Origin: Bigelowiella natans CCMP2755
Lineage: Eukaryota > Protista > Cercozoa
Length of the DNA stretch: 64,000 nt
Direction: 5' to 3'
Assembly (NCBI GenBank): GCA_000320545.1
Contig: ADNK01003301.1
Span: 1 to 64,000 of the forward strand
Shown here: piece by piece, positions 3,894-46,197 of the stretch
How positions within the stretch are numbered: the stretch's first letter is position 1
How the letters are laid out: every line of letters begins with the position of its first letter
Position numbers and translations under genes: made by a program
Notes under the pieces: model-generated
The model's database searches: none
Told to the model about the DNA's origin: nothing
The model's input: only the letters and a program-made list of their open reading frames with translations

Positions 3894-5288
3894 TCATCCG
3901 CCAAATCCTTTCTTCTTGCTGCCTGCTGGTCCGCTTTTCTTCCTCCTTGTGTCGCCACCACCACCATCCTTTTTCCTCCTCCGTCCCCCGCGGATCAACG
4001 AATTGTCGTCTACGTCGTTGTTTAGATGTGCCCTTCTTCTTTGTTCCACCTGATAGGCAGTAGAGCGCGGGCGCCAGTTAACAGGTTGTGTGTCCCCCCC
4101 CCCCGCCTTCTCTTCGGTCTTCGGGGCCTCTTCCGCTGAGGAAGTAGGCAACTTACCGATTGCATCCTTGAATGCGGAAGTGAGTCCCCACGAAACCCAT
4201 ATTTGCATGACCCATTTTGTGTCATCGGCATCCTCGGCTTGATGAATAGAGCGAGGGTCGGAGAGGCCATCAGATGTGGACGGAAAGAAAACAAGCGCCT
4301 TTCCCTTCTCAGGCCGACTAGCTATACCTAGTCTCTCAAATGACGTCCGTCCGGCCGAGGCGACCTCATTCAAATACACTAATATCGTCGCTCGTCGCTG
4401 GAAGCGATTCATCCTTGCCATCTCGACCGGAAATCCGTCCTCATGAAGGAGAAAATGCTGGCCTTTCTCATAACGAGCTACCTGCAGCTGCTCGAAGACG
4501 AATTTTCCTGGTGGAGGCAGCTTCCCGGGAGAGGACCATTCAGCATCAGGCAGAAGAGCAGAAGCCTTTTCGTGAATCATATCCGTTATATCCCTCAGTT
4601 TGGGGTGAAGGGTCATCAGCGTTTCATCGATAATGAGAGATGAGCTTGTTCGGCGCTGCTGCGACACGTCGGCCGAGCCTCCATCACCGAAGTAGTTGCC
4701 GCCGACAGGCGAAATCTTAAGCCTTCCTGTTTCTTCAGCAGCTTCGATTAGATTGTCACAGTCTTCGGGAGAGAAAAAGTTATCAACCGTAAGAACGGGT
4801 GGTTCCAAATTAAGCAGTCGCACGCCTTGGTGATGATCGATATCAACCTTCACGTAATCGGAGCTTAGCACCTTGATGACAGCGTCTCGGGCTTCATCGG
4901 TCATATCAGCGATGAGTTCTCCCTGAGGTTTGCATGGTTTGATGGATCTCAAAATGGGAAGCTGGTCGTCGGTTGTAGCGCTGCATCGTGATGTCATCAT
5001 CATCATCGTTGCAGGCCTCCTGCGTGGAGGTCTACTGCCCTGGTGTAGCTGGAAGATGCCTCCTCCCGTCTTGCTTACGGCTATCATGGAACCCACGCTG
5101 GCAGAGCGAATTTTGTGAGTGAAAAGAGGGCAGTAGTCTTGGAAATGGAAAATTGCGACTATTGCAATTGACAGAACGAGCAGAGGGGGGGTGGCAAGCA
5201 AGCGGCACATTCGGAATCGTCGAAGAAGTACGATGTTGGCCTTCTCCTCTCCGCCAATCGTCCGCTGCTGCCGAACCAGTCCGTACAT
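3894..5288 (-). CDS. Prolyl 4-hydroxylase-like 2OG-Fe(II) oxygenase, intronless, with probable bipartite plastid leader
   Basis: PPVLTVDNFFSPEDC, RTSSS, QVARYEKGQHFLLHEDGF (HxD), RRATILVYLN, PEKGKALVFF, SIHQA (distal His), KWVMQIW. Hydrophobic LLVLSIAIVAIFHF is followed by a Ser/Arg-rich segment. Confidence 0.85.
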   Translation of the reverse strand: MYGLVRQQRTIGGEEKANIVLLRRFRMCRLLATPPLLVLSIAIVAIFHFQDYCPLFTHKIRSASVGSMIAVSKTGGGIFQLHQGSRPPRRRPATMMMMTSRCSATTDDQLPILRSIKPCKPQGELIADMTDEARDAVIKVLSSDYVKVDIDHHQGVRLLNLEPPVLTVDNFFSPEDCDNLIEAAEETGRLKISPVGGNYFGDGGSADVSQQRRTSSSLIIDETLMTLHPKLRDITDMIHEKASALLPDAEWSSPGKLPPPGKFVFEQLQVARYEKGQHFLLHEDGFPVEMARMNRFQRRATILVYLNEVASAGRTSFERLGIASRPEKGKALVFFPSTSDGLSDPRSIHQAEDADDTKWVMQIWVSWGLTSAFKDAIGKLPTSSAEEAPKTEEKAGGGDTQPVNWRPRSTAYQVEQRRRAHLNNDVDDNSLIRGGRRRKKDGGGGDTRRKKSGPAGSKKKGFGG

Positions 5289-5840
5289 ATCCGATTACTT
5301 TGTATTCCTTTAGGTACCTGTATCTCACGGATCGATCTCAGCAGATGTGCCCGCAGCGAGGGGGGGGCGGTCCCTTCATCATACTCTCCTCTCCTCCAAT
5401 TGAAACACAGTCGATTCCAGGAGAAAGAAACCAACCGGCAAATTTATAGACTATGCGCATTTTACCTTGTCGCAGACCTAAGAAGGATATAAAAAACGGA
5501 AACATAGGCGGGAAAACCGGCGTTCCGAACCGCTTCAGCACCCCTTTCCCATCCGGCCGAAATCGGCCTGCGCTTCGATGGGAGGCCACCCTCCCACGCC
5601 CCACGCCTTTTTTCGAAAGTGGCCGAAATTCACTTGAAATCGAGGTTTTTGTTAAGTCGCAGTTCATAATTGTAGGAGATTTTCCAATTTTCTCAGCACT
5701 TTTCGACCACAAAGGTCTGAACCATCCAGCCCCCTCCTCAGGTGTGCGTGCTGGTCGTTCCTTCCACCCCTCGCTGCTCCCCCCCTCGAATACAGCTTTC
5801 CAAAAAGATATAGAGTCCGACTATAGTTTCCATCCTTCCG

Positions 5841-6271
5841 ATGAGTGGATCTGTGGCGACGAAGCTCTTCCGGCAGATTCGGTCGAAAGCCCGCGAAATC
5901 GATAGGCTTCTCATGCAAGTGGACACCCACTTCCCAGCCAAGGAATGCTCCTCACAGATGCTTTTCAACGAGAGCCTCAAACGATGGCTGAGAGCACCGA
6001 AGAAGCCGGCTACATCGCAACCATCGAGTGGGGAGGATCTTGATGCAGTGCTCAGCATGCCTGTTTCCGACAGTGTGAGGGAGCTCATCGGTGATGAAGG
6101 CGAGAGCAAGGAAATGGACCTCTCCCTTGGCTTCGAGATGATAAGGGAAATGTCAAGACATCTTACTGGGCTTCAAATAGTAATCAAATCACCTGCAAAG
6201 CGCGACCTCATATCTAAGCTGTGATGGTTTTTCTGAGTGCTGTATGCGTAATGTACATTAAATGAAAAAAT

Positions 6272-6310
<39 letters not shown>

Positions 6311-7798
6311 CTAATCATTGCACATATATCCCCTTCAACCCAAAAGGTGCTGGAGTGGTGCGAGCTGGTCAAGCAAAGCCTCAGCGCGGACAACATAACC
6401 GACCACGACATCGTCGGCATCGAGAGGGTAACTACTACTATTACTACTACCACTACTATTACTACGACGCCTCTTTCTTTCAATGCTGCACGGAAACAAC
6501 CTAGCATCACCAATTTAATTACGTTGCATTCGTGCGTACTTGTGATATATAATATTCCTCCACAGGGGGCAATGCTTGTCGACCGGGTGTCGCTCCTTCT
6601 CGATGAGGATGAAGGAAACAGCGAGCTGGACTTTCCCGAAGATGTCACTGCAGAGAACCAGCCGCTTTTCGGACCTGAATATCAAACTGAAGGTAGGCAG
6701 GTGGCCGGCCGGTGGGGGGAGGAGGGGGAGATGAATAAGACCAATCAGGAAGAACAATCGAATAGACTACTTTGCGGCTGGGGAACTCTGCGACGACGAT
6801 TGACAACCCATGACTGCGAGAGAAGAAAGAGAGTTGTATTCAATGCTGCTCTGATTTTTTTAAAAATGTATTTTATTAAAAAAAGGCCTGCATCCATACG
6901 ACCGGGCTACGATAGATGAGTTGGATGATATTGCGGACGAGGTTAAGACGAGGATCAGAAACAGGTTCACTATGGCGACCGCCCATCCCTTTATCCATGT
7001 CCACAGCGCACAAAGCAAAGCAAACACCCTGATGGAGGAGCGTATAATTTGTGCCGATTTTATTTAGTACCGACTTTGTCGTCAAATTTTGGTCAATTCG
7101 CTCTCACCACCACCCTCATCAGCACGTGCAGCACTTTTCGAAAATCAAAACGACGATGATGAAAAACAGGCCGACGAGAGAATTTGGACACGTATTATTT
7201 GACGATTGCTGGTGTATTGTTGTAATTTGTTGTTTCGAGCAGGAAAGAGGAAGGGGGTCACGAGCCTTCTCAAGTTGAGGTTTTGCACGAGGTAACAATC
7301 AAAATAGTTCTGTCCTCTCCTCGTCATTTCGTGTGTGTGTACATGCAATATGTGTATTCATTTGTGTGCTTCTCCCTCTCTCTCGCTCTTTCTCTCTATG
7401 TGCGTGCGTGCGTGCATGCATGCATGTTTGTGTGGAGAAAGCGTTGATATTTTAATGAGTAGTGGATATGTTCCCATATAAATAAGGTCAATTCAGTCCT
7501 TTTCGACCAAATCGGTTTCTTTGGCGCACCCTCCCCTGAATGGTGAGTAGCAAACAGAGAATTCTCTCTCCCATGTACTAAATTAGAATACAAATTGGAG
7601 AGAGGAAAGGAGCACCGAGCAGCACTTCTTGTACAAAAGTAGAGATATAAACACACATGTGCTGTGGTTCTTGTCGTCGTCGTCGTCGTCGTCATCGTCG
7701 TCACCAGGTTTGATAGCTCTCGCAACCAGCTGCGAGGCGTATTAAAGGCAAGGTATGGTGTGATCGATCGCTGTCGTAGTAGTAGTAGTAGTAGTAGT

Positions 7799-7834
<36 letters not shown>

Positions 7835-8018
7835 CTGCTCTACAAATGATGCACATGCACAGCAGCAGGCTGCTTATTATTTCCCCACCGACTGGCCTCT
7901 TTCTTTCCTTCTTTATTCTCTCCCCTCCCTCTCCCTCCGTCATACCACTCCTTCTTTATTCTCTCTTCTTCTCATACTCGCACCTTGCTCCTCTTCTCAT
8001 CACCCCCACCCCCCCCCG

Positions 8019-8063
<45 letters not shown>

Positions 8064-8152
8064 ACAATAGACGAGGATCTCCAATTCCTCTCTGCATCCT
8101 CCATGCTGCCGTTTCAACACGTGTTGGGTAATAGCTGCAACAACGAAAACGA

Positions 8153-8185
<33 letters not shown>

Positions 8186-8977
8186 CGACGACGACGATAA
8201 TGATGATGATGACGAAGGGAAGGAAAAATGCCTATGTTTCTGAGGACAGCAGCACCTCAAAAAAACAATCGCACAAGAGCACCTAAAGGGCACCGATCGC
8301 CTCTGTCTCTAGGACGTGTCGCATACGCAGAACAAAATTCATCGAAGCAACTTCGACAACGACTCGCGCACACGCAAAGTACAAATTTGCACACACACAC
8401 ACACACACACACGCACTTCTTCCGCACTGCTGTTTTCCCTTCTTCTGTTGATGCAGACTAAACGTCCGAGGCGTGAGGATTCCTTCTTACTTCTTGCTAC
8501 GAGTCGCATTTGGTGATGTTGCCGATGAAGCATCAGCAGATGGTGAAAGCGGAGGCCTGAGGTAGTGTATTAATACAATATAAACCATGCACGACGCCCA
8601 AATAACAACAGTTAGTTGTTGCGTGTGTGGGTACCTACCTTCCCTGAGCTTCTTTACTCCTCCATTCGGTGAAAAGGGGAGGATTTCATCATAATCCACC
8701 ATCATCATTATCATCATCATCATCATCGTTATCATCATCCACACATACGTGACATTTCACCCGATAATAAAGCAGCTCCTTGGCAGTATTTTGCTTCGTC
8801 TTTCGTTTCTCTTCTTCTGCTTCATTCAGCTTCGTCACTTATTGTTGTTGTTATTGTTGTTGTTGTTGTTGTTGTTGTTGTCGCTGTTTCTGCCCCTCCC
8901 TCCACCCATAGGATCGACCAGAAAGCCAACAGCGTTGATATTGGTGGGTGGCAATCACCAATCAGAATATAAATATA

Positions 8978-9031
<54 letters not shown>

Positions 9032-9462
9032 TTCTCGTCGTTCTGTTCTGATGAACCGATGGTACGCCTCCCATCAGGAACACGCGAGGATATACGCAAG
9101 AGCGCTGAGATTGAAGTTTATTGGAATGGGGACGACAAGTGGTAGCTCGTAGTACTCATAGTCGTAGTCGTTTTTCTAAGCTCAGTAAGGCAGTTTTTGT
9201 GCTTTTGGTTCCGTTTGCGTGCCATCCTGTGCCCTCATCCATCCGTCTTTTTAACCAGCACCACCAACTCTTGATGTATGTATTGACTCTTTTGTTGCTT
9301 TCGCCGTTATTTTGCAGGTACCCTGCGGAGGTCGATTCTATCGAAGGGGACGTTATCACAGTCAACTATTGGTTGTAGCATAACAGTCTTATCAATTTTA
9401 TTCTGACCCCTCCCCCCCTCCTTTTATAGCTTCTCGCCGACCCCATTCCTATGCATGTATGT

Positions 9463-9499
<37 letters not shown>

Positions 9500-9650
9500 A
9501 ATGTTTGAGGGGCTGCTGCTACAAGTGTGTATGGATGATGATGATGATGATGATGATGATGCGTGTTGGGGGTAGGGATAACGACAATCGGCACCGACGG
9601 CTGCTGATGGAAAATATGAATAAGGTTTCTGCTGTGTATAAATACTGAGT

Positions 9651-9694
<44 letters not shown>

Positions 9695-10122
9695 CCTATT
9701 TCGAAAGTATGCAGTTGAGCGCAAGAGATGCAAGCACACGACTTTCTTTCCATATTTGTCTTCGCCGTCGTTGACATATCGCTTGATTGTCGTTTGCTGA
9801 CTACTCCTAAACTTGATATTCATCAAATTGTTAAATATCCTTTGCATCGATTTTTCCAGCTTCCCGATCTTCATAAGGACACGCTCGTTTTTCGTCTCCT
9901 CGTGGACCGTGCATGTACACACACACAGCAGATGATACGCATATACAACTACATCAAAAATGCAGCATAAGACCCCCTCTCTAATGGCACCATGAGAAAG
10001 TCTTCTGGTGAAATGAGAACAAAAAGACAACTGATTTTTTAGCTTTGCTCCATCAATGCTAGCGATGATCAGTTATTGAGTTTCAGTGAGGAGATAAACT
10101 TGTAGTTGAGAACATGCATGCA

Positions 10123-10153
<31 letters not shown>

Positions 10154-10250
10154 TTTACTACTGTTGCACTCATTCAGCCGATGTTCGAGAGCTGGCAGTG
10201 GGGCGGCGCGTCGAGGTGTTCTGGGCGCAGGATAACACGTGGTACACAGG

Positions 10251-10281
<31 letters not shown>

Positions 10282-11011
10282 TCTCGCTTTTATCTTGTCA
10301 CAATAATCAGGAGAGTGTTGAGTTTGGGGGTGAACATTGAAGGGGAGACAAGGGGGGGGGGGTTGGAGAGACGTAAGAGGGAAATACTAGCTCAACGAAG
10401 ATGAAGAAGTTCATTTTGGCATCCGTTCACGTCCCACCCACCCCCCCCCCCCCCTCCCCTTCGATCCTAGGGACTGTAAAGTGGGTCGACACTGCCAACG
10501 GAAACGTGCACGTGAGGTATGAACGAAAGTAGCACTAAAGAAGATATTGTTGCCTTATTACCACGCTCTTCCTGCGAGCGGTAGTGGTTAAGATGGTGAT
10601 GATAATGATGATAATGATGATAATGATGATGATGATTGTGATGATAATGACGACGATGATGATGATGCTGAAGAAGAGGAAAGGGAGGCGGAAAGGAGGG
10701 AATAGAACCAACCGCAACCGTGCGATTTGTGCGAGTTTAGACCGTCATCTTTGCCATGAAAGATAAAGCGAAGTATAATCCAATCCCATGCCTCTTTGTC
10801 TTTTCTTCTTCTCCTTCCCACGATAAAAATCGTCTCTCCTTCCCACGTTTGCCCTCATCAATCAGATACGATGACGGCGATGAAAGAAACACGGTGCTGC
10901 AGCAGCTACGAGAGTAGAAGAAGTGTTGAGTAAATGTTGAGTAAATATCATCGATACGAGAGTAGAAGAAGTGTTGAGTAAATGTTGAGTAAATATCATC
11001 GATACATGATG

Positions 11012-11048
<37 letters not shown>

Positions 11049-11293
11049 ATATATATGTACATGAATATCATGTATATACATATTATAGAACACACTTTGT
11101 TGCAAGCATATGCTTACTATTTTGTCATCTATTGTTTGCACTCCCCCTCCCTCTCCTTCCACCTTTTCTCCTCCTCCTGCTGCTGCTTCTGCTTTGGATG
11201 CTGCACATCTGTTATTTAGACATTGTCCATTGGCCTCTTCGGCGCCCCCCCTGCACGGCACCTCCGTGAGGATGAGAACAAGGCTTCTCCGCC

Positions 11294-11337
<44 letters not shown>

Positions 11338-11822
11338 AGAGAGAGAGAGGACTAGAGAGAGAGAGAGAGAGGACTAGAGAGAGGGAGAGAGAAAGAGAGC
11401 AGCATTGTCGTCGTTTACGTTTTAATGACTTATCGTATCGTCGTCTCGGTCGTGGCGGGGTGTGCTTTCGTTGTGCTTAAGTGTTCTTATTCGGTGCATG
11501 TACATATGAGAAGGATGAGAAGAAATGAGGGGGGGAAGGGGAAAGGGGGATGAGAAAGGACTGTGGTGTGTGCTCCTCCATGCTTTCACATGATGAGAAC
11601 TAGGGCAAAGGCGTCATCAGCGTTTGTCTTTTGTTCTTCTGTATGATGCAAGGACGACGGGGGAGCTGAGAGGAGTGCCAATGCGGAAGAGGGGAAAAAC
11701 CTCGTATTTCGCCTGTTTGATAGGCCTTTCAGCGACGAGTCAGGTGGGTGCTATTAGGCGATGGTTTTTGATTACAAAACATCGGCTGCTTTTAGTACTG
11801 TTGATTACTGATGGTCCTCCTC

Positions 11823-11855
<33 letters not shown>

Positions 11856-12233
11856 CTTTTCTTCTTCTTCTTCTTCTTCTTCTTCTTCTTCTTTCTCGCC
11901 TTGTGTGGCTTTAGATGCTACGAGCTGTTTCGTGGACCCTCATAAGAGCGGCAAGGTGTGTGCTCAGATGCAAGGGGGGGGTGGGGGGGGTTAGGGTTTG
12001 GGGGGGACTGCTTCCGGAGGGGGGGGGGTTCTAAATTTTTGACGATGTGGTTACGATTTGATCCCTACGTGCCAGAGCCGGTTATTGAGTCGTCGTGGTT
12101 TGTGTGTCGTTCATCATCTCTTCTAATGTCGATGCAGGTCTTTTGCCACGCTGAAATGTCGTCGCTTTTGCGCGAGAATGGTATCCAGTCATCCAAGTTT
12201 AGGGTAAGATCTATAAATACGCACATGCACATA

Positions 12234-12310
<77 letters not shown>

Positions 12311-12986
12311 ATACTATCGTATGTCACCCTTCCCCTGATCTGTGTTGTCCTCGCGTGTGGATTTGTACGTGTGTTTGTTCGTGGATGATCGATCAGTCCC
12401 ACCTCTCTCCGGTGCAAAACCCTGCTGTGTGGGTGAGTATGCTGAAGCACATGGTAATAGTAGTTGTAGTACTATTACTACTATCTTTTGCTAGCTGCTA
12501 GTAGTAGTATCCTTCTATTTTACACTCTGTTCGAATGCACCGCCCCCCCTGTCCCGCCTTTAACCCCCTCACGTAAATGTCTTCTTCTTCTTCTTCTTCT
12601 TCTTCTTCTTCTTCTTCCCCTTTCTGGTGCGTAGCTGAGAATGGCTGGGGCGACTGAGCGGCAGGAGCATAAGAACATGTGGAGCAACCAGCTCGTAGAT
12701 CTGAAGAAACTCGAACAGTAGTATATGCTGATATTTTCATATCTCTTTAACAATCACACGACAAGTCCACGTGCATCTTCCCTTTCGTTTGCTGAGAAAT
12801 CGGAACCCCCGTCGTCATCTCAGGTATTCTCCAACATCGTGGGCGCCGCCCCCTGTTCCATCCGCTGTGGCCGCACCCACTGCAGTTGCTGCTGCTGCTA
12901 CTGCAGAAACGCCGTCAGATGAAACAGAGCCCTCAGCAGCGAATGAGGGAGATGAAGGAAAAGGGGGGAATGAAGGCAGGCCTTGA
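5841..12986 (+). CDS. Transglutaminase-like (Transglut_core2; SirB1/FBXO21-type) protein with two inserted Tudor-like domains, 24 exons, ~628 aa
   Basis: Hand-built phase-consistent GT-AG exons: 5841-6179, 6347-6427, 6566-6692, 6886-6964, 7243-7291, 7487-7542, 7708-7752, 8071-8127, 8457-8561, 8912-8943, 9078-9141, 9318-9371, 9576-9624, 9860-9908, 10178-10249, 10471-10516, 10866-10893, 11220-11294, 11653-11743, 11915-11955, 12138-12203, 12397-12432, 12635-12717, 12824-12986 (1887 nt). Translation includes ELDDIADEVKTRI, EVNSVLFDQIGFFGAPSPEWFDSSRNQLRGVLKARRGSPIPLCILHAAVSTRVGLNVRGVRIPSYFLLRV, FVDPHKSGK and HLSPVQNPAVWLRM. Confidence 0.8.
10908..11005 (+). repeat. Intronic tandem duplication, 2 x 48 bp
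   Basis: acgagagtagaagaagtgttgagtaaatgttgagtaaatatcatcgat occurs twice, head to tail. Confidence 0.9.
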
Positions 12987-13565
12987 CCGTTGAATGGACG
13001 TGGCTTATCGTCGTCGTCGTTGTCGTTGCTGTTGTCAAACGACAAGAGCTCATCTTCCCAAGTGCCAAAGGACAGAGAAAAGTAGTTGAAAATGTTGGGG
13101 AAACATCCTTCATTGTTGTTCAAAGTAATGAGTGAGTTGATCATCTTTCCAGCACACGTACTACGAAGAGTGACTAAAAATTAGTCGGATCGGACGGAAA
13201 GATATGTAGTTAACAAGATGAGAGTAATATCACATTGATGCATTCACGACGATGTAAAATCTGACAAGTTGCTGAATCATCAACTACTATAAAAATATTT
13301 TTGGCAAACAGCATAACCCGTGATTCATCGGAGTTATTATTATTGGTGCTTTTCGCAATGTTAATTATAGATCCATATCATAAAGTGGATTCGCAGCAGC
13401 CATACATGATCGAAGACATATAGCATACTATATGATGATTAGCAAAGCACTACCACTGCATGCGCAGGAGAGAATTATATACGTGTGTGATGAATAACTC
13501 ACATAAGTATCTTATAGGCGCTTTAGCTTGTATTGCCGGCGACAACAATATGCATACTATAAGCA

Positions 13566-14056: not shown

Positions 14057-14335
14057 TTATTCATCATCTGGTAGTTCATTCCATTTTTTCAGTGCTTCTT
14101 CATATTCTTTTTTAGCAACTTCTGCTTTTTGTTCATATTTTTTCTTTTTGCTTTCGTTTATTGTTTTCCAACTAGCTCCACCCTGACTGACCATCTCAGT
14201 CACATTGTATTTACCATCATTCGTTTTCCGGAAATCGGTCATAAAATGGAAGAAAGCCGACCTGTGATATCGGAACCAAATTGAATGGGACAACAACATT
14301 AGTAATAATAGTAATAATAATAATAATGACATATG

Positions 14336-14386
<51 letters not shown>

Positions 14387-16765: not shown

Positions 16766-18309
16766 ATGCTTGTTTACGTTATGGTGGGGCTCTCGGGTTT
16801 CTGCATATTGCTTGGGCTGCTTTCAATGGGATTCCGAGCAGGGTATGGTTGGAGTAGTTTCAGTAGCTTATTAACTGCTGCTGCTGCTGCTGCTGATGAT
16901 GATGATCCGTACTCTATTTATCTAGCAATGTCATGAAATTGTGCTTTGGTTGCTCTTCTCCATCGAATTGCATTACATTTTAATTATTCCAAACGCACAT
17001 CACCAGTAGCGTCCTCAAACCCTACCGTCCGTTGCAGGTACATGATACTGGTGCTGCTCATCTGCATCGGCAGTTTCTTCCTTATTCTATATCTCGCTCA
17101 ATGGATCATCGCACACCCAGACAACGACCCTCAAATGAGGAAGATATCAGATTACATCCGTGAGGGTGCCCAAGGTACAGCATCAACCGAGCAGATGCCC
17201 CTCTTGACAGTTACTTATCAAAATAATTTCTGCTGCCTTTTCCTTCTTCTTCACACTTATCATCGTTCATTCATCTATTAGGGTTCCTTACGGTCCAGTA
17301 CAACACTATCCTTTGGATGGCTGGTGCCGTGGCAGTGGTGATCTTTGGTATCTACCTGTTCCGAGCCTCCACGACGAAGGAGGTCTCTAAGACCACACTT
17401 GCGATCCTGACGTCGCTATCGTTCGGTCTGGGTTGCTTTTGTTCCGCACTCGCTGGCTACATTGGCGTCTGGTCCTCTGTGCGCGTGAACATCCGTGTGG
17501 CAATGGCAGCTGGAAAGCGGGATTACATAAATTGTTTCTTGCTCTGTTTCCGGGGCGGGGCGCTCTCAGCCTGCCTTTCCGCGTCCATGTGTATCCTCGG
17601 AATTTGCATGCTTTACCTACTTGTTCACATTATCTTCGTCGACTTCTCTGGAATGCCAGTCCACGAAGTTCCGGTGCTGCTCGCTGGCTATGGCTTCGGA
17701 GCATCGTTCGTGGCGCTTTTCATGCAGCTCGGGGGAGGCATCTACACCAAGGCTGCTGACGTGGGTGCGGATATGTGCGGGAAGATCGACCAAAACCTGC
17801 CGGAAGACGATCCAAGGAATCCGGCTGTCATTGCGGACCTTGTTGGAGATAATGTCGGGGACTGTGCAGGATCCATGGTATTACGTACTGTACAGCAGCA
17901 TGATGATGATGAGGAGGAGGAGGAGGAGGCAATGGATGAGTACGACCCAAAAAAAGGATGAGACAAAACACAACAATATAACGATGCACATCTGCATAAT
18001 TGCACGTTATTGTTATTGTTGTTGTTGCTACGGTGGTAGTGGTAGTGGTAGTCCTGGTGTCATTATATGCTCTGACATCTTAAATTCTTCTCAGGCCGAT
18101 GTATTCGAGAGCATTGCCGCTGAGATCATCGGAACCATGATTCTGGGAGCTAGTCTAGGCCACGAAGCAAAAGTGGAGAACTTGGAGGCTTTCATCTTCT
18201 TTCCACTCATCATTCATGCCTTTGACTTAGTTGTAAGCGGTGTCGGTATTATGGCAGTGCAATCGCGCGGTCGGTCGGAGCCTCCTCTCACTACAATGCT
18301 CAGAGGGTA

Positions 18310-18352
<43 letters not shown>

Positions 18353-19684
18353 ACTCTCTTCTCTTTTTCACACACATACATATTAAGAGAGAGTGAGAAA
18401 GAGAAAAAGAGAGAGAGAAAGCGAAAGGCTCACGCACAAACTCTATCACAACAAAGGTACACGGTGGCGATGGTACTCGCAATCATCGGCTTCGTCGCAA
18501 CGACACGCTGGATGCTCTACACCGAGGTTGCTCCCAACGCTTGGTGGCACTTTTCTGGCTGCGGTATCTGTGGGATTGTGACGTCCTACCTCCTCGTCCT
18601 CATCACTAAGTACTACACGGACTACGAAAACTCTCCTGTAATAGGCATTGCGCGCGCGAGCAAGTCGGGTCATGGGACCAACATAATTGCGGGGGTTGCC
18701 GTTGGAATGGAGTCGACTGGTCTGCCAATTGCTGTAATCTCAGTGGCTCTCATGATCTCCTATACACTCGGAAAGACCTCGGGACTCCCAGGAAACGCTG
18801 CTGGCGTGTTCGGTACTGCAGTGGCAACTATGGGCATGCTCTGTACCGCCGTCTTTGTGCTCTCCATGAACAACTTCGGACCCATCGCTGACAATGGCGG
18901 AGGAATCGTCGAGATGAGCGGCCAGGGCGAGGAGATTCGCGAGATCACGGATATGCTTGACGCAGTTGGAAACGTCACTAAGGCTGCTTCCAAAGGCTAC
19001 GCAGTCGGCGGATCAGCTCTCGCCTGCTTCGTGCTCTTCCAGGCCTTCCTCGACGAGATCAGCATCCTCATCAACAAGCCCTTCCAGAACATTGACATTG
19101 CCAATGTCGAGGTGGTGATAGGCGGGATGCTGGGCGTGATGACGATCTTCCTCTTCACTGGATGGTCGATGGCCGCTGTGGGATCCACCGCCGAAAAAGT
19201 CGTGCAGGAGGTGCGGAGGCAGTTCCAAGCCATGCCTGGTATCATGGCCACCCCTCAGACACAACAGCCCGACTACACAACATGTGTCGCTATTGTGACA
19301 AAAGGAGCCCTCGGAGCGATGGTAAAACCCGCGTTACTTGCGTTGGCTATGCCTGTCGTTGTCGGCTTTAGCTTCCGTGCCATCGGTTCTTACACCAACC
19401 AGCCCTTGCTTGGATTAGAAGTAGTGGCAGGCTTCATGATGTTCGGCAGCATTACCGGCCTAATGATGGCTATCTTCCTCGACAATAGTGGAGGTGCATG
19501 GGACAACGCAAAAAAACTAGTGGAAAAGTCTGGGCAGAAGGGCTCCGAGCAACACAAGGCCGCCGTGACGGGAGACACGGTCGGAGATCCTTTCAAAGAC
19601 ACTTCTGGTCCCTCCCTCCACGTCATCATTACAACGATGTCGACGACGATACTGGTCTTGGGACCCCTTTTCGCATCTTATTAA
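16766..19684 (+). CDS. Membrane H+-translocating pyrophosphatase, K+-independent (type II/AVP2-like), 5 exons
   Basis: GGGIYTKAADVGADMCGKID, PEDDPRNPAVIADLVGDNVGD, GPIADNGGGIVEM, DNSGGAWDNAKK, GDTVGDPFKDTSGPS. GNVTKA has Lys where K+-dependent enzymes have GNTTAA. Exons approx. 16766-16842, 17038-17173, 17282-17877, 18094-18306, 18457-19684. Confidence 0.95.
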
Positions 19685-23551: not shown

Positions 23552-26480
23552 TTATGCAACCGACTTCACAGAATCAATGATTTCTCTCTCCAAATTTGGA
23601 GGGACAAAATCATATGAGTGAAGTTGCATCTGGTACTGGGCTCTTCCCTTTGATATGGACCTCAGTGTGGAGACGTACTGGAACATCTCCGAGAGAGGAA
23701 CTAGAGCCGACACTTGCTTAACGTTACCACGATCTCCCATCTCGAGGACTTGTCCACGTCTGGAGTTGATATCACCGATAACATCTCCCATGTGTTCTTC
23801 AGGGGTAGTGACATCGACCTTCATAATAGGCTCGCTAAGACGTGCCTTAGCCTTCATCATACCTTCTCTGAATGCAGCACGAGCAGCAATTTCGAAAGCC
23901 ATAACAGAGGAGTCTACATCGTGATATGCGCCATCAAGAAGGGTAGCTTTAAATCCGAGGACAGGGAACCCTGCAAGAGGTCCTCGAGTGGTCTCAGACT
24001 CAATACCTTTAACGACACCAGGAATGTACTCCTTAGGCACGGTACCTCCCTTGATTTCCGAAACGAACTGGAATCCCTCAGAGGATTCGTCATCTTCAGC
24101 TGGCGTCCAGGGTTCGAAGTCCACGACGATGCGTGCGTACTGGCCAGATCCTCCAGATTGCTTCTTGTGTGTGTAGTCGATGTTAGCCTTCTTCGTGATA
24201 GCCTCGCGGTAAGCGACCTGAGGAGCGCCGACATTGCACTCTACGTTGAACTCACGGCGCATACGATCCACAATGATGTCAAGGTGCAGCTCTCCCATAC
24301 CCTCAATAACAGTCTGACCCGATTGTTCATCACGAGAGTATCTGAAGGAAGGATCTTCTTGTGCCAGTTTGTAAAGAGCGTTGGCCATCTTTTCCTGGTC
24401 ACCCTTGGACTTAGGTTCAACAGCGATCTTAATGACAGGTTCAGGGAAGTCCATCTTTTCAAGAATCACAGGGTTCTCAGCGTCGCAGAGAGTTTCTCCA
24501 GTGGTAGTATCCTTCATTCCAACAAGCGCAACGATGTCGCCGGCACGGGCCTCAGGGATTTCCTCTCGGCTGTTTGCATGCATCAAAACCATACGAGACA
24601 CGCGCTCCTTTTTACCCTTAACAGAGTTAATGATCTGGTCGCCTTGCTTGAGAACACCGGAGTAGATGCGTGCGAAGGTAAGTGTTCCCACATAAGGGTC
24701 AGTAGCAATCTTGAACGCGAGCGCCGAGAAAGGTTCGTCGTCGCTGCTGATACGCTGTGTCTCCTCCCCGTCCTTCGTCTCACCCTTGATGGCTTCTACA
24801 TCGATAGGAGCAGGTAGGAAGTCCACAACTGCGTCTAGCAATGGCTGTACACCCTTGTTCTTGAAAGCAGTTCCGAGCATGACGGGCACGAATTCGAAGT
24901 TGAGGGTACCTTTACGAATAAGCTTTTTCAAGGTCGCCTCGTCAGGTTCCTCGCCCTCCAAATATTGTTCCATAGCATCGTCGTCCATTTCGACAGCAGC
25001 CTCGATCATTTTTTCACGGTACTCATCAGCCTTCTCCTTGAGGTCGTCAGGAATTTCAGTCTCCTCGAAGCTAGCTCCCAGACTCTCGTCGTTCCAGACA
25101 ATTGCCTTCATCTTAACAAGGTCGATTACACCCTTGAAGTCGGATTCAGTGCCAATTGGTAACTGCATAGCGACAGGTCGTGCCCCAAGCTGCTTCTCAA
25201 TCGACTCAAGGCAGTAGTAAAAGTCAGCACCAACTCGGTCCATCTTGTTGCAAAAACAGATCCTTGGCACCTTATATCTGAAATATGATAGATACCAATC
25301 AAAACAACGAAAACAGGTAGGATCATCAATATGTATTGTGGTGTGAGAAGGCGTTGATGTAGGACGGTGCTGCCATCGAAAATAAGCTGAAAAATCCGGC
25401 CACTCACTCCCTGCTATGTACACACCTGTCAGCCTGGCGCCAAACAGTCTCAGATTGTGGTTCAACACCAGAAACACCGTCGAAGACAGCAACTGCACCA
25501 TCAAGAACGCGGAGGGATCGCTCAACCTCTAGGGTAAAGTCGACGTGTCCGGGCGTATCGATGATGTTGATACGGTGATCTTTCCAGAAAGTGGTAGTGG
25601 CAGCTGATGTAATAGTGATTCCACGTTCCTAATTGTATGATACAGAAAAACTATGGATCAATCGATGAAAATATGAATTATGTGTCTGGTGAGTGAGAAT
25701 GCACATGCCGTTGAACTGTGATAGTCATCGAGTTGAGTAGAATGTTGTTAAGGATATAATGTTTATTACAAACATTTATATACCTGCTCTTGTACCATCC
25801 AGTCCATAGTCGCACCACCATCATGAACTTCACCGATTTTATACGACTTTCCGGTGTAATATAGGATTCGCTCTGTTGTTGTGGTCTTGCCAGCGTCGAT
25901 GTGAGCCATGATCCCGATGTTACGATACATATCCAAAGGAATTTCTCTGAAAAACATATGCAACAAGGAATGCGCCGTAGGTCAGCTCTTGACTGAAAAT
26001 TCTGACCCGATTACTTATTAAATACGCGCCCTCTACACTAACACCCATACCGGATCCACTTCATTTATACCTTTTTCCTGCTTCAGCTGCAGCAGCATTT
26101 ACCACAGTCGATCTTGGAGCATTATTGAGGATTTGTCGAGAAATTTTGGGAGCCTGATCTCTCTTGCGCTCAAGCATCACCTTCTGACAGAAAAGAAGAC
26201 ACATCGTCCGTCAGAATTGAGTATGCAATTTCTTTCCATCATCTATTCTCGCATCAACTTTAAGACGTGTGTGCGTATGTGTGCACGTTTGTGTGGGGAA
26301 GGGATACAAATATAACATTTTGTAACTAGGGTTCTTCTACTGCTTACTCGTGGTGGAAGCACAGAGCGAGAGAATACGGAAGGGGGTGCGCGTACGGAGA
26401 TCTTAGGTTGGGTGCTTACGACAGGAGCAGCCACATCTATGATTATCAATTGCACACTGTTAATTCTTTATTTATTCACA

Positions 26481-29766: not shown

Positions 29767-32700
29767 CTATTTCTTCTTATGGCTCTTTTTCTTTCCATTC
29801 TTCTTTTTCTTCACTCTGCCATTCTCCTTGTTTGTCTTCGCGCTGGCGTTCTTCTCTTTACCGACCTTGCTCTTCTTGGCAGCAGATTTAGGACTGCTCT
29901 TATTGCCGTTGTCAGCAGAATTTCCGGCAAAGCTGATCTTTCGTTTCTGTCCCTTTTTTGTTTGGTTAGGTGTCTTTTTTTTCTTCTTGCTACTTTTTTT
30001 TTCTACAGCATCATCGCGTTCATGGTTCACTTTGACTGCAACATCATCATTTTTGCTATCACGATTATCATGAACATCGTCGTCGCCGTTTCCTTCATCA
30101 TCATCGTCCCAGTTGCTTTCCATCTCCCCAAATCCTTCCAACCCTTCCCCGTCCTCCTCTTCGCCATCACCATTGTTGACATTTTCGAGGGGATCCTTAG
30201 TGACTCGCACCAGAATCGCATCATTTTCGTCCGAATGGTCGTTATCATGATCATCTTCATCATCGCCGTCATCTTCATCACTGCTCTCTACTTCTGCCGG
30301 AAGAGCACCACCGCCGAGCAGATATTCATTCTTCCCACCATCGTTGATGGCTCTAGAGTCTGGTAACTCCTGAAGAATGGACGTCGATGCGAGCATATAG
30401 TCCAACAGGTATGTTCGCTGTAATAGCTTGTCTAGACGCTTGAGGTGCCTTTCAGAGTACCTAGGAGGAGAGTGCTCTTTGTTATATAATACCATTTTAG
30501 TTCTTTATAATCACGTGATCATTGCATTAATTTACACCTAATCCTTACACCCATACATACTTATCCCCCCCGCTGGAACCTGATAATATGTTGCGCGGCT
30601 TCACGGAGGGGCTGTCGTATTTCTGATGACACCGTCGTGTTTGCTCCGTCCAACAGTGCGTGCTCACGAAGGAGTCGAGAGAGCACAAAATGCGCCACGG
30701 GAACGTAGTCAGTGTGCGTATTCCACTCGCGCGACCAAAGTACTATGCGAGCCCTTTCTTCAATTGTGCAATCTCCTAGAGCCTCACGTAACACCTCATC
30801 CGTGCTTGCGTGCCGGTAAAGGTGGCGAAAGATTTTAAACAGTTGTCGGGAATGTGAAAGCTTGAGCGCGATGCGAATAGCTTTTGCCCATTCCTTGTTC
30901 CGGAGGCAATTACGCAACTCTTGCTCTTTGAGGATATTATGCTCTCTCTCCATGCGTTCAGCCTCCTCTTCCTCCTCGGTTGCATCATGCCAGAACACGA
31001 TTCGAGAGTCCTCGCCACCGGTCACGATGCTTCCGCCATCACCCCAACATCGCAGCGCCCAGATTTTGTCCTATGAGAGTAGGCGATGGTGGTCGAAACA
31101 GCATAGAAAATCACGATCAACCCATTGAAGAGGAGGAGAACATCGAGACAGAGAGATAGGGGGTACGAAAATCTTATTTTTTCTCCCTTCTTCTTCACCT
31201 TCAAACTCTATTTTCTACTAACACCGCCGTATCCGCTTTCTACCTCATGCGCCTCCTCCGCAAAGGTGTTAATGCATTCGTTTGTCTTTATGGTCCATAG
31301 TTTGACCGCTGCATCGGAGCTGGCACTAAGGAGTTGAGTTCCTGCGTTGATAAAACAAACCTGCGTTACAGATGCCTCATGTCCCTGGAAGGTCCTTAGG
31401 CACGCGAAGTCTCCGTCTACAGCCCAGATCTTGATAGTTTGATCACCAGAGCTTGAGCAAACTACACGGTCAACAGGAGAGAATACCACAGACCACACGC
31501 CACGCTTATGGCCTTTGAGTGTAGCCAGAGGTGAGGTAAGATCATTCGCTTTCCATAGCTTCACAGTGCGGTCCGAAGAGCCGGTTGCTACCAGATTGTC
31601 ATCAGCTGAGACCGCAAGTCCGTTGATGTCCTTCAAGTGTGCAACCACGCCATCTGCTGACTTCTTGAGCTCTTCGATTCCACCTGAGTCATCTGTGGAG
31701 GAGTGTGATGCCTCCTTGCCTTCTATCATCATCATCATCATCTTGTTCTTCTTCTTCTTCCTTCTTAGTAGCCTGCCATAGTCCCACCGCTTCAATGTTG
31801 TATCACGTGATGTTGAGAAAAAATATGCATGTTGAGGGAGGCGGCAGCATGCAACAGCACCAATACCCTTCGTGTGACCCGATACTACTCCTACACACAC
31901 CGGTGGATGCAATATTCTCACTGTTGAAGAACCACCTAAGAGATACGAGAAAACATCAAGATGATAAATCAAGAAAACTCGGAGGTCTCCTACTTTGATA
32001 AAATGGTGCATGTGTATGAATACCTGGCACGTTGGCCTTCTCGATCGTTACAGTTCCAGCTTCGTTGAGCCGCCACAGCCTGATAGTAGTATCTTTTGAC
32101 CCAGAGAGTAGAAAGCGGTTGTCGGCGGAGATGCAGAGAGAAATCACGGTATCGTTATGCCCAACTAGTAGACGAGCGTTGAGGGTTTTCACATCATAAA
32201 CCCGAATAACAGGAGAGTTAGTTGCGACAAATACTGCATCGCCTTCCACATTCTCTGTGAATCCACTCGCTCTCTCCGTGCCGTCATTGTCCTCATCGGA
32301 ATTCTCATCCCTCTCCTTGTACTTTTGGCCGTCGACTCTCCTTTTTTCTTCGTCTTCATCGCCGTTATTCCCCGACCCCACCGCTTTCAGGATGGTGGAT
32401 AATGGTGCCCATGCGATGTCCAGTATCTCATCATTATGGCCAATGACAATCCGCGATTGATGAAATCCCATAAGGCTATGGAACCGAATATTGTGCTCCT
32501 GGGTCGAAGTCACCACTGCCCCTCCTCCTTCGACAGCATCGGCGAGAAACATCTGGAGTATGTGCGTCTTGGCTTTCTCCTGTTTGTTGTTTTGCCCCTC
32601 GCCATCCATTCTGACATTGCTGTTATTGTCACTATTCTTATCGTGTTTGTCGAGGCTTTTGCTGAACTCCATCGTCATCTTTTTCGTGTTCCATATCTTA

Positions 32701-33739
32701 AGGACCCCCTTCTCACCTCCAGTTGCAATATAACACTCGCCAAGCTTGGATCCTTCAAACAGGACGCTTGGTGGTAACGATATAACACCTTCCAGCTCCT
32801 CGTATACGGGTGTAGTGCGCAGCAAGGAGTAGTCGGACGTGTCCCACGTGTTGATTACCTTATCTCGACCTACTGTGAACATCCTCTTACCATCATAGCT
32901 GAAGGCCAAGCCCGTTGCGCTTTGAACGTGATCATCCAGTGTTCTAACACGGCGCGAATATAGTTCGGAAACCCGTATCTCACCACCTTCGGAGAGGGAA
33001 ACAACCTCCATTCTGGTACTTGTGAAATGAGGTCGGAATAAGAGTCTAGTCACTGTTCCTTGATGTCCTGTGAAACGATGCGTGCAGTGACCAGTGGCTA
33101 TATCCCAAACCCTAACGCTGCGATCGGTACTGCCTGTGGCAACAAGTGTTCCAGTGGGATCTGTCTCCATTGACAGCACCGGAAGTTGGTGGCCCTTCCA
33201 CGACTTAATCTTTTTGCCTTCATTGCTTAAGTCCCAAGTCGTTAGTAGAAGACTCTGGGCGCTAGTGATAAGAGTCTTGCCCTTCGGATCCACAGCAAAT
33301 GTGATAAAATTGTCGCTTTCGCCTGCCTCAATTTTGAGTGTGACTTGCCTGAGTAGTTGAGTTATTCTCTCAGCTATAAAACAATTAAGTTTTAGACTTA
33401 CACAACACTCACCCATCATCAATGTTGGAGATCGCAACGTCTCCATTACACCAGCAGAATAACCGAGACTGATCTTTTTGAGCTATACAAATTTTGCCTC
33501 CGGTGTAGCATGCCTGGATCGAACGATCCGTTTGGTAGGTTTTAGAAAGACGATTTCTCATGTGAGTGCGATGGGTTCCAGCGATGAGAATTTGTTCAGC
33601 TCAGAGCACAAACAGCGCACCTACATCCATTGCCATATGAAGATTATGGTATGAGATTAGGAACTCACAAACTACGATGACCTATGATCCAAGTTTACTC
33701 GCCAGGGGAGTCAGTAACTCCACGAGGGGTCATCGTCAT
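29767..33739 (-). CDS. TBL3: U3 snoRNP WD40 protein UTP13/TBL3, multi-exon
   Basis: LSKTYQTDRSIQACYTGG N-terminus, many WD repeats (GHNDEILD, GHKRGVWSVVFSPVD) and Utp13 C-domain EQELRNCL..WSREWNTHT..YSERHLKRLDKLLQRTYLLDYML, then an acidic and Lys-rich tail. Confidence 0.93.
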
Positions 33740-34375
33740 TATTCATTCTCCAGGCTCATCTTGCCCGTTCTGTCCTCCGAACAACAAAAGGTACGACAAT
33801 GAACAAGGAATTTGCGATGTTCATTTACTGATATATGGAGCATGAACATGTCGCACTTACCAAAAGACATTCCATAAAACAAGAAAATCAGACTCGAAGG
33901 CATTTGCAAAGGCAAGATCGTCTTTCACAGGAGGTGAAGTTGAGCAGTTCCTGATGCAATAATTCAATTCGGGGAATTCATCGGAGGTTAAACAAACTTA
34001 ATTTAGCGGCTAAGGCCGTACCTTGTGACTCCAAGAACGAAAAGTTTCAATAAAGTTCATTAAATCCCGGTATTGAACATAATAATTGAAAAATCGAGGG
34101 CATTATTTACATAACTAAAGGCTTTACAGCTAATATGGACATTTTCTCTGGGTAGTGAGTGTTTGAATAACCTGAAAATCTCTCGGTGAGCATGCGCCTC
34201 CCCCACCGCCCCCAATACCTTTTTCTTTAAATGACAGACGGTGAAATCATGGGACTTTACCTTTAGAATTGATTCCTAATCAGTTTCAACACTTTCCCAT
34301 GTTGTACAGAGAATTTTAAACATCATCTGACATGCAGATCGTTGTTTCTCAGCCACACAAGTAGCTCCAGCCATC

Positions 34376-35209
34376 ATGGACTCTAAGAAAGAAATGGAGG
34401 TGATCGAACCCAAAGAAATCTCCAAGAAGAAAAAGTTCGTTTCCGACGGTGTTTTTTACGCTGAGTTAAATGAATTTCTCTCTCGTGAGCTTGGAGAGGA
34501 TGGATATTCAGGAGTTGAGGTGCGAGGTCCTGCTCGCCGCAGAGAAATCATCATTAAGGCAACCCGCACCCAGCATGTTATCGGAGAAAATGGAAGGCGC
34601 ATCCGGGAGCTTACCTCCCTAATTGAGAAGCGTTTTGGCTTTGCTGATGGTCAAGTCAAGCTTTTCGCTGAGAAGGTGAGGAACCGTGGACTGTGCGCTA
34701 TCGCTCAGGCAGAATCGCTTTGTTACAAACTCATGGAAGGTATGGCTGTGAGACGGGCGTGCTACGGAGTTCTTCGTTTTATCATGGAAAGTGACGCTAA
34801 GGGATGTGAAATCATCGTTTCGGGTAAATTGCGTGCACAACGTGCTAAAAGTATGAAATTCAAGGACGGATACATGATCACATCTGGTGACGCTGCAATC
34901 CACTACATTGACGAGGCTGTCCGCAGTATCAAGATGAAACAGGGTGTTTTGGGAATTAAGGTGAAAATCATGCTTCCGTATGACGCTACAGGCAAAGTTG
35001 GATGCAAAGTTACACAGCCTGATGTTGTGACTGTCCTTGAACCTAAAGCGGAGAAACCACTGGATATCCCACCCAAAACCGGATATTCTGAAGATATGAG
35101 AAAGAAGGATCCAACACCTATGGAACAACCTGATGCTGGTATGTCTCAACCAATGTCTCAGCCAGCTGATATGTCACAAGGACAAATGGCACAACCTGTT
35201 CACGGTTAG
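34376..35209 (+). CDS. RPS3: 40S ribosomal protein S3 (uS3)
   Basis: [57 protein letters not shown]. Uninterrupted CDS with an M/S/Q/P-rich C-terminal extension. Confidence 0.98.
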
Positions 35210-35750: not shown

Positions 35751-36466
35751 AAACAGCGCTAGAGCGTCTACGCACGGCACTCGCTCATGCTAGCATGCAT
35801 CACATCTACGTATACGTATGTACGTGGACATGCTAGCATGCGTGAGACAATGCATCGATGCATGCGATCGCGATGCGATGCGCAATGAATGCGAAGTCAT
35901 GTTCGTGCAATTCATGTTTTCATGCAATGGTCACATCTAAACAGCTAGCATGCCAACATCTGTGTAGCAATATCGGGATGGCATGCACGCACGAACTCAT
36001 CTAGCTAGCTTGTGACAACATGCACATGCTAGCATGACATGCGTGCACACATGTGAACATGCAATTCTGATTCAAATTTGTTGCAAAATGTGCAGAATTG
36101 AATGCATGCATGCGACACGTGCGCTACGCATGTGCGTACGTGTGGACTACATGTTTGACTACATGCTTGCAAATCATGGCATGCTTGTGCTACAGCGAGC
36201 TTGTCAACCAGAGCGTGCACTGTGCACAGCTACTGGCTGAATGAATGTTTTGCATGTGAATGCATGAACATAGGGCATCTTTACACTGCGACATGATCCT
36301 AAGTTGACAATTTGTTGTCGCTGTCTCTAAGTAGCGTCCTGCTGCCTCGTCTCCTCCCCAAAAATTGTGACAAAAAGTAGTTCGTCCACCTCTCATGGTC
36401 ACCGGTCCCCATGCTGGACAACAAAACTTCAGTTAAAACGTTTTTTTGTTGAACAATTTGAAACTC

Positions 36467-41900: not shown

Positions 41901-42760
41901 TTCTGAGTAAAACTTGGAAGATGCATTTTCGTCACCGTCTTGTAACAAGGATGCCAAAATTCTATAAAGCGCTTTGTAGTCATTCAAATTCAGTGCTGCA
42001 GTTTGCGAGATGGACGACGATGACTCCTCCTCGTCCTCCTCCCCCTCCAGAGAGGAAGTTGCCCAGGTTATCAGTTGCAAAATGGATGGTTCAACATCAT
42101 TATTATGATGAGCGGTGGTGCTCCTCTTTATCGTGATAAATCTAATCACTGCTTTCCAGTATTTGTTCTGTACCAGATTCATAAAATGACTACTGCTCAT
42201 ATAGTGCTTGCAGTAAAAATTGTATTCACTGTGTAAGTAGTCATAGTTTTTGTCTTCGATTGCGGGAAAATTACCACCCCAAATGTGACGGCTGCGATGG
42301 AGACGACGACGATAATAATAACTTTGATGATACACGATTCTCCACGGCCTCCCTGATCTAAACGGTCGAGGTCTTACATGGAAGTTCCATGATCCTTCTT
42401 CCAAGAGTCTCACAAGTTGTGTTTGCTCTAGTCTAGTGTTAGTTGATAATGCTGATGACAAGGACGGTGACGACGACGACGACGATGATGATAATGATGG
42501 CGACGCGTTTGTGCGTGATCGTACGATAATATTCAAGCAATGATGATCCTGTCCGAATAAGAAGTGGAATGGTAGAGATGGTGCACACGTTGAGGAGGAG
42601 GAGGAGGAGGAGGAGGAGGAGGAGGATGTGCTTGTTGCTTTGGGAGTAGTACTAGCAGTGGTAGCAGTGACTTTGAAGTGCCAGAGTAGGTTCCAAAATA
42701 CCCTAGATTGCCTATTCCAGATCGTTGGCAATATATCCCTCCATCCCCACCCTCCAGATG

Positions 42761-42794
<34 letters not shown>

Positions 42795-45700: not shown

Positions 45701-46159
45701 TGCTACCCACACTGGACAAAATCTCATCTAGAGCAATAAGCAAGCGCGTACGTGTTCCTTTGCCAAAACAAGCTGGTAAAGAAATAGAGGATGAGTCGAG
45801 TGCAGCAGGCCTCAAAGCACCAGTGTCTAAATCAACTAACAGCACATCCGAAGGTATAGCCAGAGCAGAGGCACTACTACGGGTAAGACCGAAGATAAAC
45901 GGTATCATTGAACACGAAAACAGCGAAATCGTACGTGGCAGAAGCGGAATAAATGTATGGGCCCATTTGAGTGGTGTTATCAATGAGCGAAGAGCGAGGG
46001 CAGCAGGACCAAGCTTGGCGACGTTTGAAGAGATGAGAATGATTTTTGACTCAGAGAGTATCGCCTCTAGGATAAGGACCAAACGACTAGCAGAAAGGAC
46101 TTTAAAGAACTCGATCGATTTTGCAATGTGAGCTATATTTATTTCAGGTGGGTAAAAAC

Positions 46160-46197
<38 letters not shown>

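Follow-up and report, generated by a model that had tools for sequence, protein, structure and literature searches.

The window analysed here is a stretch of 64,000 nucleotides from Bigelowiella natans CCMP2755 (contig ADNK01003301.1 of assembly GCA_000320545.1, positions 1 to 64,000 of the forward strand), and its main subject is a gene on the forward strand at 5841-12986, in a region without a long open reading frame. A search with exon 1 found the product as a 637-residue transcript-derived protein (P0001), whose 90% cluster includes the Bigelowiella natans gene model P0006. Mapped on the window, P0001 occupies 24 exons, 22 of them 28-130 nt long, separated by 23 introns that all run from GT to AG, and its coding sequence amounts to 1914 nt, that is, 637 codons and a stop. 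A first-pass annotation, made from the letters of the window, had proposed 24 GT-AG exons joined in consistent phase into 628 amino acids; exact mapping and transcript contigs bear out the exons, while the protein is nine residues longer. We are almost certain of the architecture that the gene encodes, a SirB1-type (Transglut_core2) domain split by a tandem Tudor insert.

Transcript evidence comes from contigs assembled from sequencing runs that are only presumed to be RNA, and such contigs drop rare isoforms. The introns are skipped by assembled contigs in seven of eight runs, representing six studies; the eighth, consulted as raw reads of which about 6% were read, has almost no depth on the gene and says nothing on its expression. 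Two contigs, of 2334 nt and 1885 nt, have exactly the lengths that the 24-exon model predicts for their spans, and over exons 10-18 the contig spacing of 473 nt equals the predicted spliced spacing. A splice junction that skips exons 10-19, which the first-pass annotation had regarded as fatal to its own proposal, is not listed for the assembled contigs, from which rare forms could escape.

P0001 and the window differ by two amino acids, both in exon 21 (12138-12203), where transcript contigs in four of four runs depart from the window by two letters: P0001 has Leu517 and Thr522, like most orthologs, and the window and P0006 have Phe and Met, either through an assembly error or through a strain difference. 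P0006 (626 residues) mis-splices exons 12-13 (window 9318-9624) and so departs from the 24-exon model at residues 360-379, losing three pocket residues of the first Tudor unit (Y362, D364 and D366). Intron sequence occurs in low-depth contigs at 7056-7239, 7842-7987, 9115-9341 and 11402-11673, which fits retained introns or precursor that had not been spliced. Microsatellites are present in most of the gene's introns, and intron 17 carries a tandem duplication of about 48 nt (approximately 10908-11005) that is seen directly in the letters.

The Pfam model Transglut_core2 (PF13369) matches the protein in two stretches with 75.2 bits against a cut-off of 23.5, and a profile built from nine insert-less relatives matches residues 191-297 with its positions 120-229 and residues 499-580 with the adjoining positions 230-310, splitting likewise in all five full-length family members; the ortholog C-terminal half matches Transglut_core2 profile positions 101-151. 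The domain is thus split around a large insert, as had been proposed, although the loop from PSYFLLR to FVDP (R293 to F507) measures 213 residues rather than about 230. It measures 183-214 residues in three orthologs, against 6-13 residues in 31 of the 32 insert-less rows and 48 in the remaining one (P0089). In P0155 the same SirB1 hairpin loop holds a 176-residue insert (at about residues 185-360) that scores 29.2 bits with Cyclin_D1_bind (cut-off 22) and has no match to the Tudor profile; this unrelated insert indicates that the loop tolerates insertions.

An AlphaFold2 model built from a 38-sequence alignment reached a predicted local distance difference test score (pLDDT) of 80.3 and a predicted template modelling score of 0.77, and in it the two halves are predicted to form one menin-like or transglutaminase-like fold, with the Tudor pair hanging from the hairpin loop. 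The first-pass annotation had asked whether the halves would reassemble in a predicted structure; in this model, which depends on the alignment, they do. Compared with 48,161 chains, the model matched nine at Z >=8. The best whole-model match, spanning both halves, was menin 3RE2 (Z 11.5, root-mean-square deviation (rmsd) 3.8, 209 aligned); TglA 9CRN also aligned over both halves (Z 9.9, rmsd 2.9, 132 aligned), as did PNGase and NAT chains. Sequence searches of the PDB returned no solved structure of a SirB1 core, the menin profile had no match to the protein, and in the ESM Atlas the whole protein matched Transglut_core2 clusters only (0.75-0.78).

The core itself is best read as non-catalytic, since the catalytic Cys and His appear to be missing. 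The site that we take, from the spacing of the motif, to be that of the nucleophile is Pro263, the His site is Tyr289, and of the Cys-His-Asp triad only Asp509 is present, in four of the five family rows. Proline also occupies the presumed nucleophile site in 32 of 32 insert-less rows, which keep His289 (31/32), Arg551 (32/32) and Asn555 (31/32); these three are lost in all five family rows covering them, and little remains in the family of the Asn/Tyr/Asn/Ser loop residues at 239-250, while structural Gly and Pro stay. An inactive core had been suspected from the start, and these losses agree with it. The replacement of the usual PGHF by PSYF, on which that suspicion drew, is present, yet it is not tied to the insertion, as the nearest insert-less relative (P0029, from Chlorokybus atmophyticus) also has Tyr at the His site and the family was already listed as inactive. 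The available portion of PMC10318531 gives the function of the Transglut_core2 family as unknown and lists FBXO21 as inactive.

The insert consists of two units related beyond chance, with a local alignment score of 67 against 25.7 +/- 5.2 for shuffled sequences and none of 2000 shuffles reaching it, so that the tandem duplication first noticed by eye holds. The best PDB sequence match is the RDM15 Tudor domain 7DE9 (E 1.6e-7), and among at least 500 Foldseek matches only the complex of the BAHCC1 tandem Tudor with H4K20me1 reaches E<=0.001. The model aligns with the Tudor barrels 7DE9, 6WAU, 7YTA and 8YE8, the last with Z 8.8 (rmsd 3.8, 123 aligned). All 58 residues of 7DE9 align with residues 398-493 (rmsd 1.8), which places LVFRL, at first taken for a motif in its own right, as the closing strand of each barrel. 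Profile matches were divided: orthologs P0003 and P0004 exceed the Agenet cut-off, in two stretches each, and the protein itself does not reach that of the Pfam Tudor model.

According to the accessible text of PMC8184781, RDM15 reads H3K4me1 through W616, Y623, Y641, D643 and D645, with E647 holding H3R2, and the part of PMC12219854 available lists W1990, Y1998, F2020, D2022 and D2024 for the BAHCC1 pocket. The W/Y/Y/D/D residues recur in ten of ten units of the five orthologs. Going by these residues, the pocket would be of the type with three aromatics and two Asp used for mono-methyl-lysine, so that a Tudor barrel stands as first proposed but probably not as a generic cage for methyl-lysine or methyl-arginine. 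At the position of RDM15 E647 (+6) all ten ortholog units have Arg, and with two single units in unrelated proteins (P0129 and P0116) the count is 12 of 12; the Glu that binds H3R2 in RDM15-type H3K4me1 readers is therefore missing, and the target is probably not H3K4me1. Other Tudor-bearing proteins share the pocket pattern in 68 of the 131 cases fetched, and the residue at this position is then Glu in 44 and Arg in two. The Tudor units are the best-conserved part of the protein: among four full-length orthologs 30 of 67 positions are invariant in unit 1 (45%) and 25 of 58 in the core of unit 2 (43%), against 34/158 and 13/84 in the core halves and 30/125 in the N-terminus (15-24% over the other folded parts).

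Taken together, we favour, with a probability of roughly 0.55, a non-catalytic adaptor that would read low-state methyl-lysine on a partner protein in the nucleus or cytosol. Each pocket would hold the methyl group among Trp, Tyr and Tyr, as in RDM15 and BAHCC1, while the two Asp would bind the remaining ammonium protons of a mono-methylated (perhaps di-methylated) lysine. The Arg beside the pocket would favour a mark elsewhere than at H3K4me1, perhaps next to an acidic residue. A second partner would be brought in by the dead core together with the N-terminal bundle, the nucleus or the cytosol being the likeliest place.

Several observations weigh against this adaptor. The Tudor match of the protein lies below the Pfam cut-off (23.1 against 28 bits), a pocket pattern as common as the one described does not by itself prove reading, and Arg in place of Glu647 of RDM15 could fill or block the pocket. 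An AlphaFold2 model from three sequences was poor (pLDDT 43.7), and the reassembly of the halves in the larger model is partly by construction because the alignment behind it already pairs them. The menin match, mostly between helices, has 8% identity, and a Z of up to about 13 can reflect a common arrangement. No simple nuclear localisation signal is conserved among the orthologs. Peptide selectivity of tandem Tudors can also vanish on nucleosomes, as the accessible part of PMC13285377 reports.

Of the competing explanations the one that survives best, though we consider it unlikely, is that the Tudor pair is a conserved surface for a ligand different from methyl-lysine, be it nucleic acid, methyl-arginine or a protein without modification. 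The invariant Arg would then reshape or close the pockets. The 12 of 12 units with Arg, against two of 68 other barrels with this pocket, speak in its favour, as does PHF20L1, in which DNA is bound by the tandem Tudors and their selectivity for methyl marks disappears on nucleosomes (PMC13285377, in the portion available). The SMN Tudor domain, moreover, is among the weak PDB sequence matches (E 0.036). Cages of the SMN type, which read methyl-arginine, have four aromatics and no Asp pair. Also against this explanation, none of the five pocket residues varies in either unit, mono-methyl-lysine readers give the best matches by sequence and by Foldseek, and the net acidic charge of the units (-6 and -2) is a poor fit for nucleic acid.

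Somewhat less likely again is an organellar protein, in which an LYR-derived N-terminal bundle would take the protein to the mitochondrion and dock on acyl carrier protein or on a respiratory or translation complex, the Tudor pair recognising lysine methylation of non-histone proteins. The first-pass annotation had already called the N-terminus LYR-motif-like. As this explanation would have it, all five orthologs begin, close to the initial Met, with a basic amphipathic helix, and P0029, which groups with the family, has an LYR triplet. In the family the triplet varies (LFR, LCR, LAR), and residues 1-125 are predicted to form a bundle of six helices and not the three of the LYR fold; LYRM proteins carry the LYR motif with a downstream Phe in a three-helix bundle (PMC11293456, in the text available). 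When seven N-termini were scanned with LYR profiles, only P0029 gave matches, and these were weak (Complex1_LYR_2 E 0.03, Complex1_LYR E 0.33), with none for the protein itself or for three orthologs scanned. LYRM chains were absent both from the PDB matches (E<=10) to a profile of the seven N-termini and from the 50 listed matches by fold; what the N-terminus did resemble, at Z ~7, was DinB-type bundles, a common arrangement. The ESM Atlas gave no usable match for residues 1-150, and no signal peptide was evident by eye. P0118, considered as LYR-like, was set aside on the F-box-like start, seen by eye, of its full-length cluster mate P0163. A more elaborate combination, in which a double mono-methyl-lysine reader of an Arg-switched Tudor subtype sits on a menin-like dead transglutaminase and is taken to the mitochondrion by an LYR-derived N-terminus as a protist-specific reader of organellar protein methylation, we regard as doubtful.

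That the core retains enzymatic activity through a non-standard nucleophile, with the Tudor pair guiding it to methylated substrates, is highly improbable: Asp509 is largely kept and Cys267 lies on the core helix, but position 267 is Gly, Gly, Ser and Cys in the other four proteins, His289 is lost in five of five, no other folded part is less conserved than the core, and FBXO21, a protein with the same domain, appears as inactive in the portion of PMC10318531 available. The last alternative, a gene-modelling artefact joining a Tudor gene to a separate SirB1 gene in which it is nested or to which it is adjacent, can practically be dismissed, since, despite the different splicing of the unit-1 region in P0006 and the few low-depth contigs containing introns, it is refuted by single contigs of exactly the predicted length that cross both halves and the insert, in six studies, and by the same order in four other full-length proteins, so that the single gene first proposed stands.

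The search for orthologs with and without the insert that the first-pass annotation had advised yielded both. The architecture is found in five distinct full-length proteins: P0001, P0002 (Lotharella globosa, automatically named 'Tudor domain-containing protein'), P0003 (Amorphochlora amoebiformis), P0160 and P0004, the last 34% identical; P0002 and P0003 are thus assigned to named chlorarachniophytes. Among the best 150 of 1408 matches in 1.84 billion representatives, core and insert were both matched only by these five proteins or their fragments, the remaining ones matching one part only, and two metagenome scans gave 136 and 51 pattern matches with no confirmed relative. The nearest insert-less relative found is P0029, with a 13-residue loop. 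In trees built with the insert columns left out, the family and P0029 grouped at 86/86 with 37 rows, where the family was not resolved as one group; with 18 rows over a longer region the supports were 96/95 and 88/85, the former for the family with P0029. Tyr at the His site of P0029 beside so short a loop suggests that erosion probably preceded insertion; alternatively, the insert may have been lost in P0029.

Single Arg-bearing Tudor units also occur in P0129, an Amorphochlora leucine-rich repeat protein (residues 214-282), and in P0116 (residues 164-231), and the 12 units fall on one side of a branch from the 40 best other barrels with a Shimodaira-Hasegawa approximate likelihood-ratio support of 93, on only 66 columns. 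Relative to the two units, introns 10 and 14 lie at the same codon and in the same phase; with shuffled exon order a shared position arises in 4.2% of 100,000 trials, so that this post hoc sign of an exon-bounded duplication is only suggestive. Introns 12 and 16 were rejected as a second shared pair: they are equally distant from the pocket Trp, yet two codons apart in the alignment. An eroded eukaryotic SirB1 protein would have taken a mobile Tudor module into the permissive loop, and this module would have been duplicated before the sampled chlorarachniophytes diverged.

Table 1. Features of the Tudor/Transglut_core2 gene and of its neighbours in the window.
Feature	Position	Strand	Basis or remark
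Transcribed span (spliced contigs)	5710..13290	+	5' untranslated region at least 131 nt, 3' untranslated region 304 nt
Coding exons 1-12	5841-6179, 6347-6427, 6566-6692, 6886-6964, 7243-7291, 7487-7542, 7708-7752, 8071-8127, 8457-8561, 8912-8943, 9078-9141, 9318-9371	+	P0001 mapping, contigs
Coding exons 13-24	9576-9624, 9860-9914, 10178-10249, 10471-10516, 10866-10893, 11220-11294, 11653-11743, 11915-11955, 12138-12203, 12397-12453, 12635-12717, 12824-12986	+	P0001 mapping, contigs
N-terminal helical bundle, residues 1-125	5841..6382	+	model; basic amphipathic first helix, weakly LYR-like
N-terminal half of SirB1/Transglut_core2 domain, residues 136-295	6413..8508	+	Pro263 at presumed nucleophile site, Tyr289 at His site
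Variable linker, residues 296-326	8509..9085	+	0/33 positions invariant (294-326); pLDDT partly low
Tudor unit 1, residues 327-393	9086..9901	+	putative pocket W339, Y346, Y362, D364, D366, with R368
Tudor unit 2, residues 401-493	10186..11718	+	putative pocket W413, Y420, Y438, D440, D442, with R444; variable loop before closing LVFRL strand
C-terminal half of SirB1/Transglut_core2 domain and closing helices, residues 505-589	11923..12839	+	Asp509 kept; family Arg and Asn (551, 555) lost
Ala/Glu-rich tail, residues 590-637	12840..12983	+	unconserved, low confidence in model
Intron 10	8944..9077	+	phase 1, 15 codons before pocket Trp of unit 1
Intron 14	9915..10177	+	phase 1, 15 codons before pocket Trp of unit 2; position and phase as intron 10
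HMG box	14057-14338	-	Pfam
H+-pyrophosphatase	17531-19684	+	Pfam
EF-G	23552-25528	-	Pfam
WD40/Utp13	29767-33482	-	Pfam
Ribosomal S3	34331-35209	+	Pfam
Glycosyl hydrolase 1	36437-38032	+	Pfam
DENN, 3133-residue stop-free frame	38901-48302	-	Pfam

The neighbours at 14057-48302 have long open frames, unlike the intron-dense Tudor/Transglut_core2 gene. On the other side, an uninterrupted 2OG-Fe(II) oxygenase frame (3894-5294, minus strand) stands head-to-head with the gene, a few hundred bases from its transcript start.

In the literature searched, short of most subscription papers, no description of Transglut_core2 with Tudor, or of a Bigelowiella natans Tudor with transglutaminase, was found, and SirB1 with transglutaminase came up as passing mentions in the text available. 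The architecture had been presented as unrecognised among described proteins, and this agrees with the literature; both domain calls for P0003 are already in databases, so that it was latent in annotation and not hidden. It is a lineage-restricted, conserved new combination of known parts. The Transglut_core2 domain serves here as a chassis whose polar core residues erode while conservation becomes highest in the inserted pair of putative readers, and one hairpin loop emerges as a repeated site of insertion, for the Tudor pair, for 176 residues in P0155 and for 48 in P0089. A small mobile Tudor subtype is defined, with a candidate specificity switch (Arg for Glu), menin is suggested as a structural guide to the Transglut_core2 family, and a reference gene model that deleted one pocket is corrected; the reach of these points is limited by the narrow known distribution and by a function that is putative.

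Compared with known systems, the protein keeps the structural Gly, Pro and hydrophobic positions of the SirB1/YchA family and the Pro at the presumed nucleophile site, and differs by the 213-residue tandem Tudor insert and by eroded His, Arg, Asn and Asn/Tyr/Ser loop residues. It scores 15.9 bits with the SirB1 equivalog model (cut-off 391), outside typical SirB1/YchA, and has no match to TPR_9, unlike SirB1/YchA with its C-terminal tetratricopeptide repeats (TPR). Chlorokybus P0029 has similar N-terminal and closing helices and Tyr at the His site, with its short loop in place of the Tudor pair and a clearer LYR triplet. FBXO21 is eukaryotic too, and its inactive Transglut_core2 domain is likewise joined to further modules, but its accessory domains follow the core, whereas here they sit inside it, and the F-box and YccV-like domains of FBXO21 had no match in the protein at E<=1. 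Menin, a scaffold whose thumb is transglutaminase-like and which has a peptide pocket (PMC13256885, in the accessible part), shares the predicted transglutaminase-like fold, a likeness of fold only at the low identity given above; no TPR palm was detected in our protein, and menin has no Tudor. RDM15 (7DE9) and BAHCC1 (8YE8) share the barrel fold and the pocket of three aromatics and two Asp in unrelated host proteins. RDM15 has Glu647 where the units described here have Arg, and in BAHCC1 only the second Tudor is described, in the text available, as holding the mark, whereas both units of the Bigelowiella natans protein keep the full pocket.

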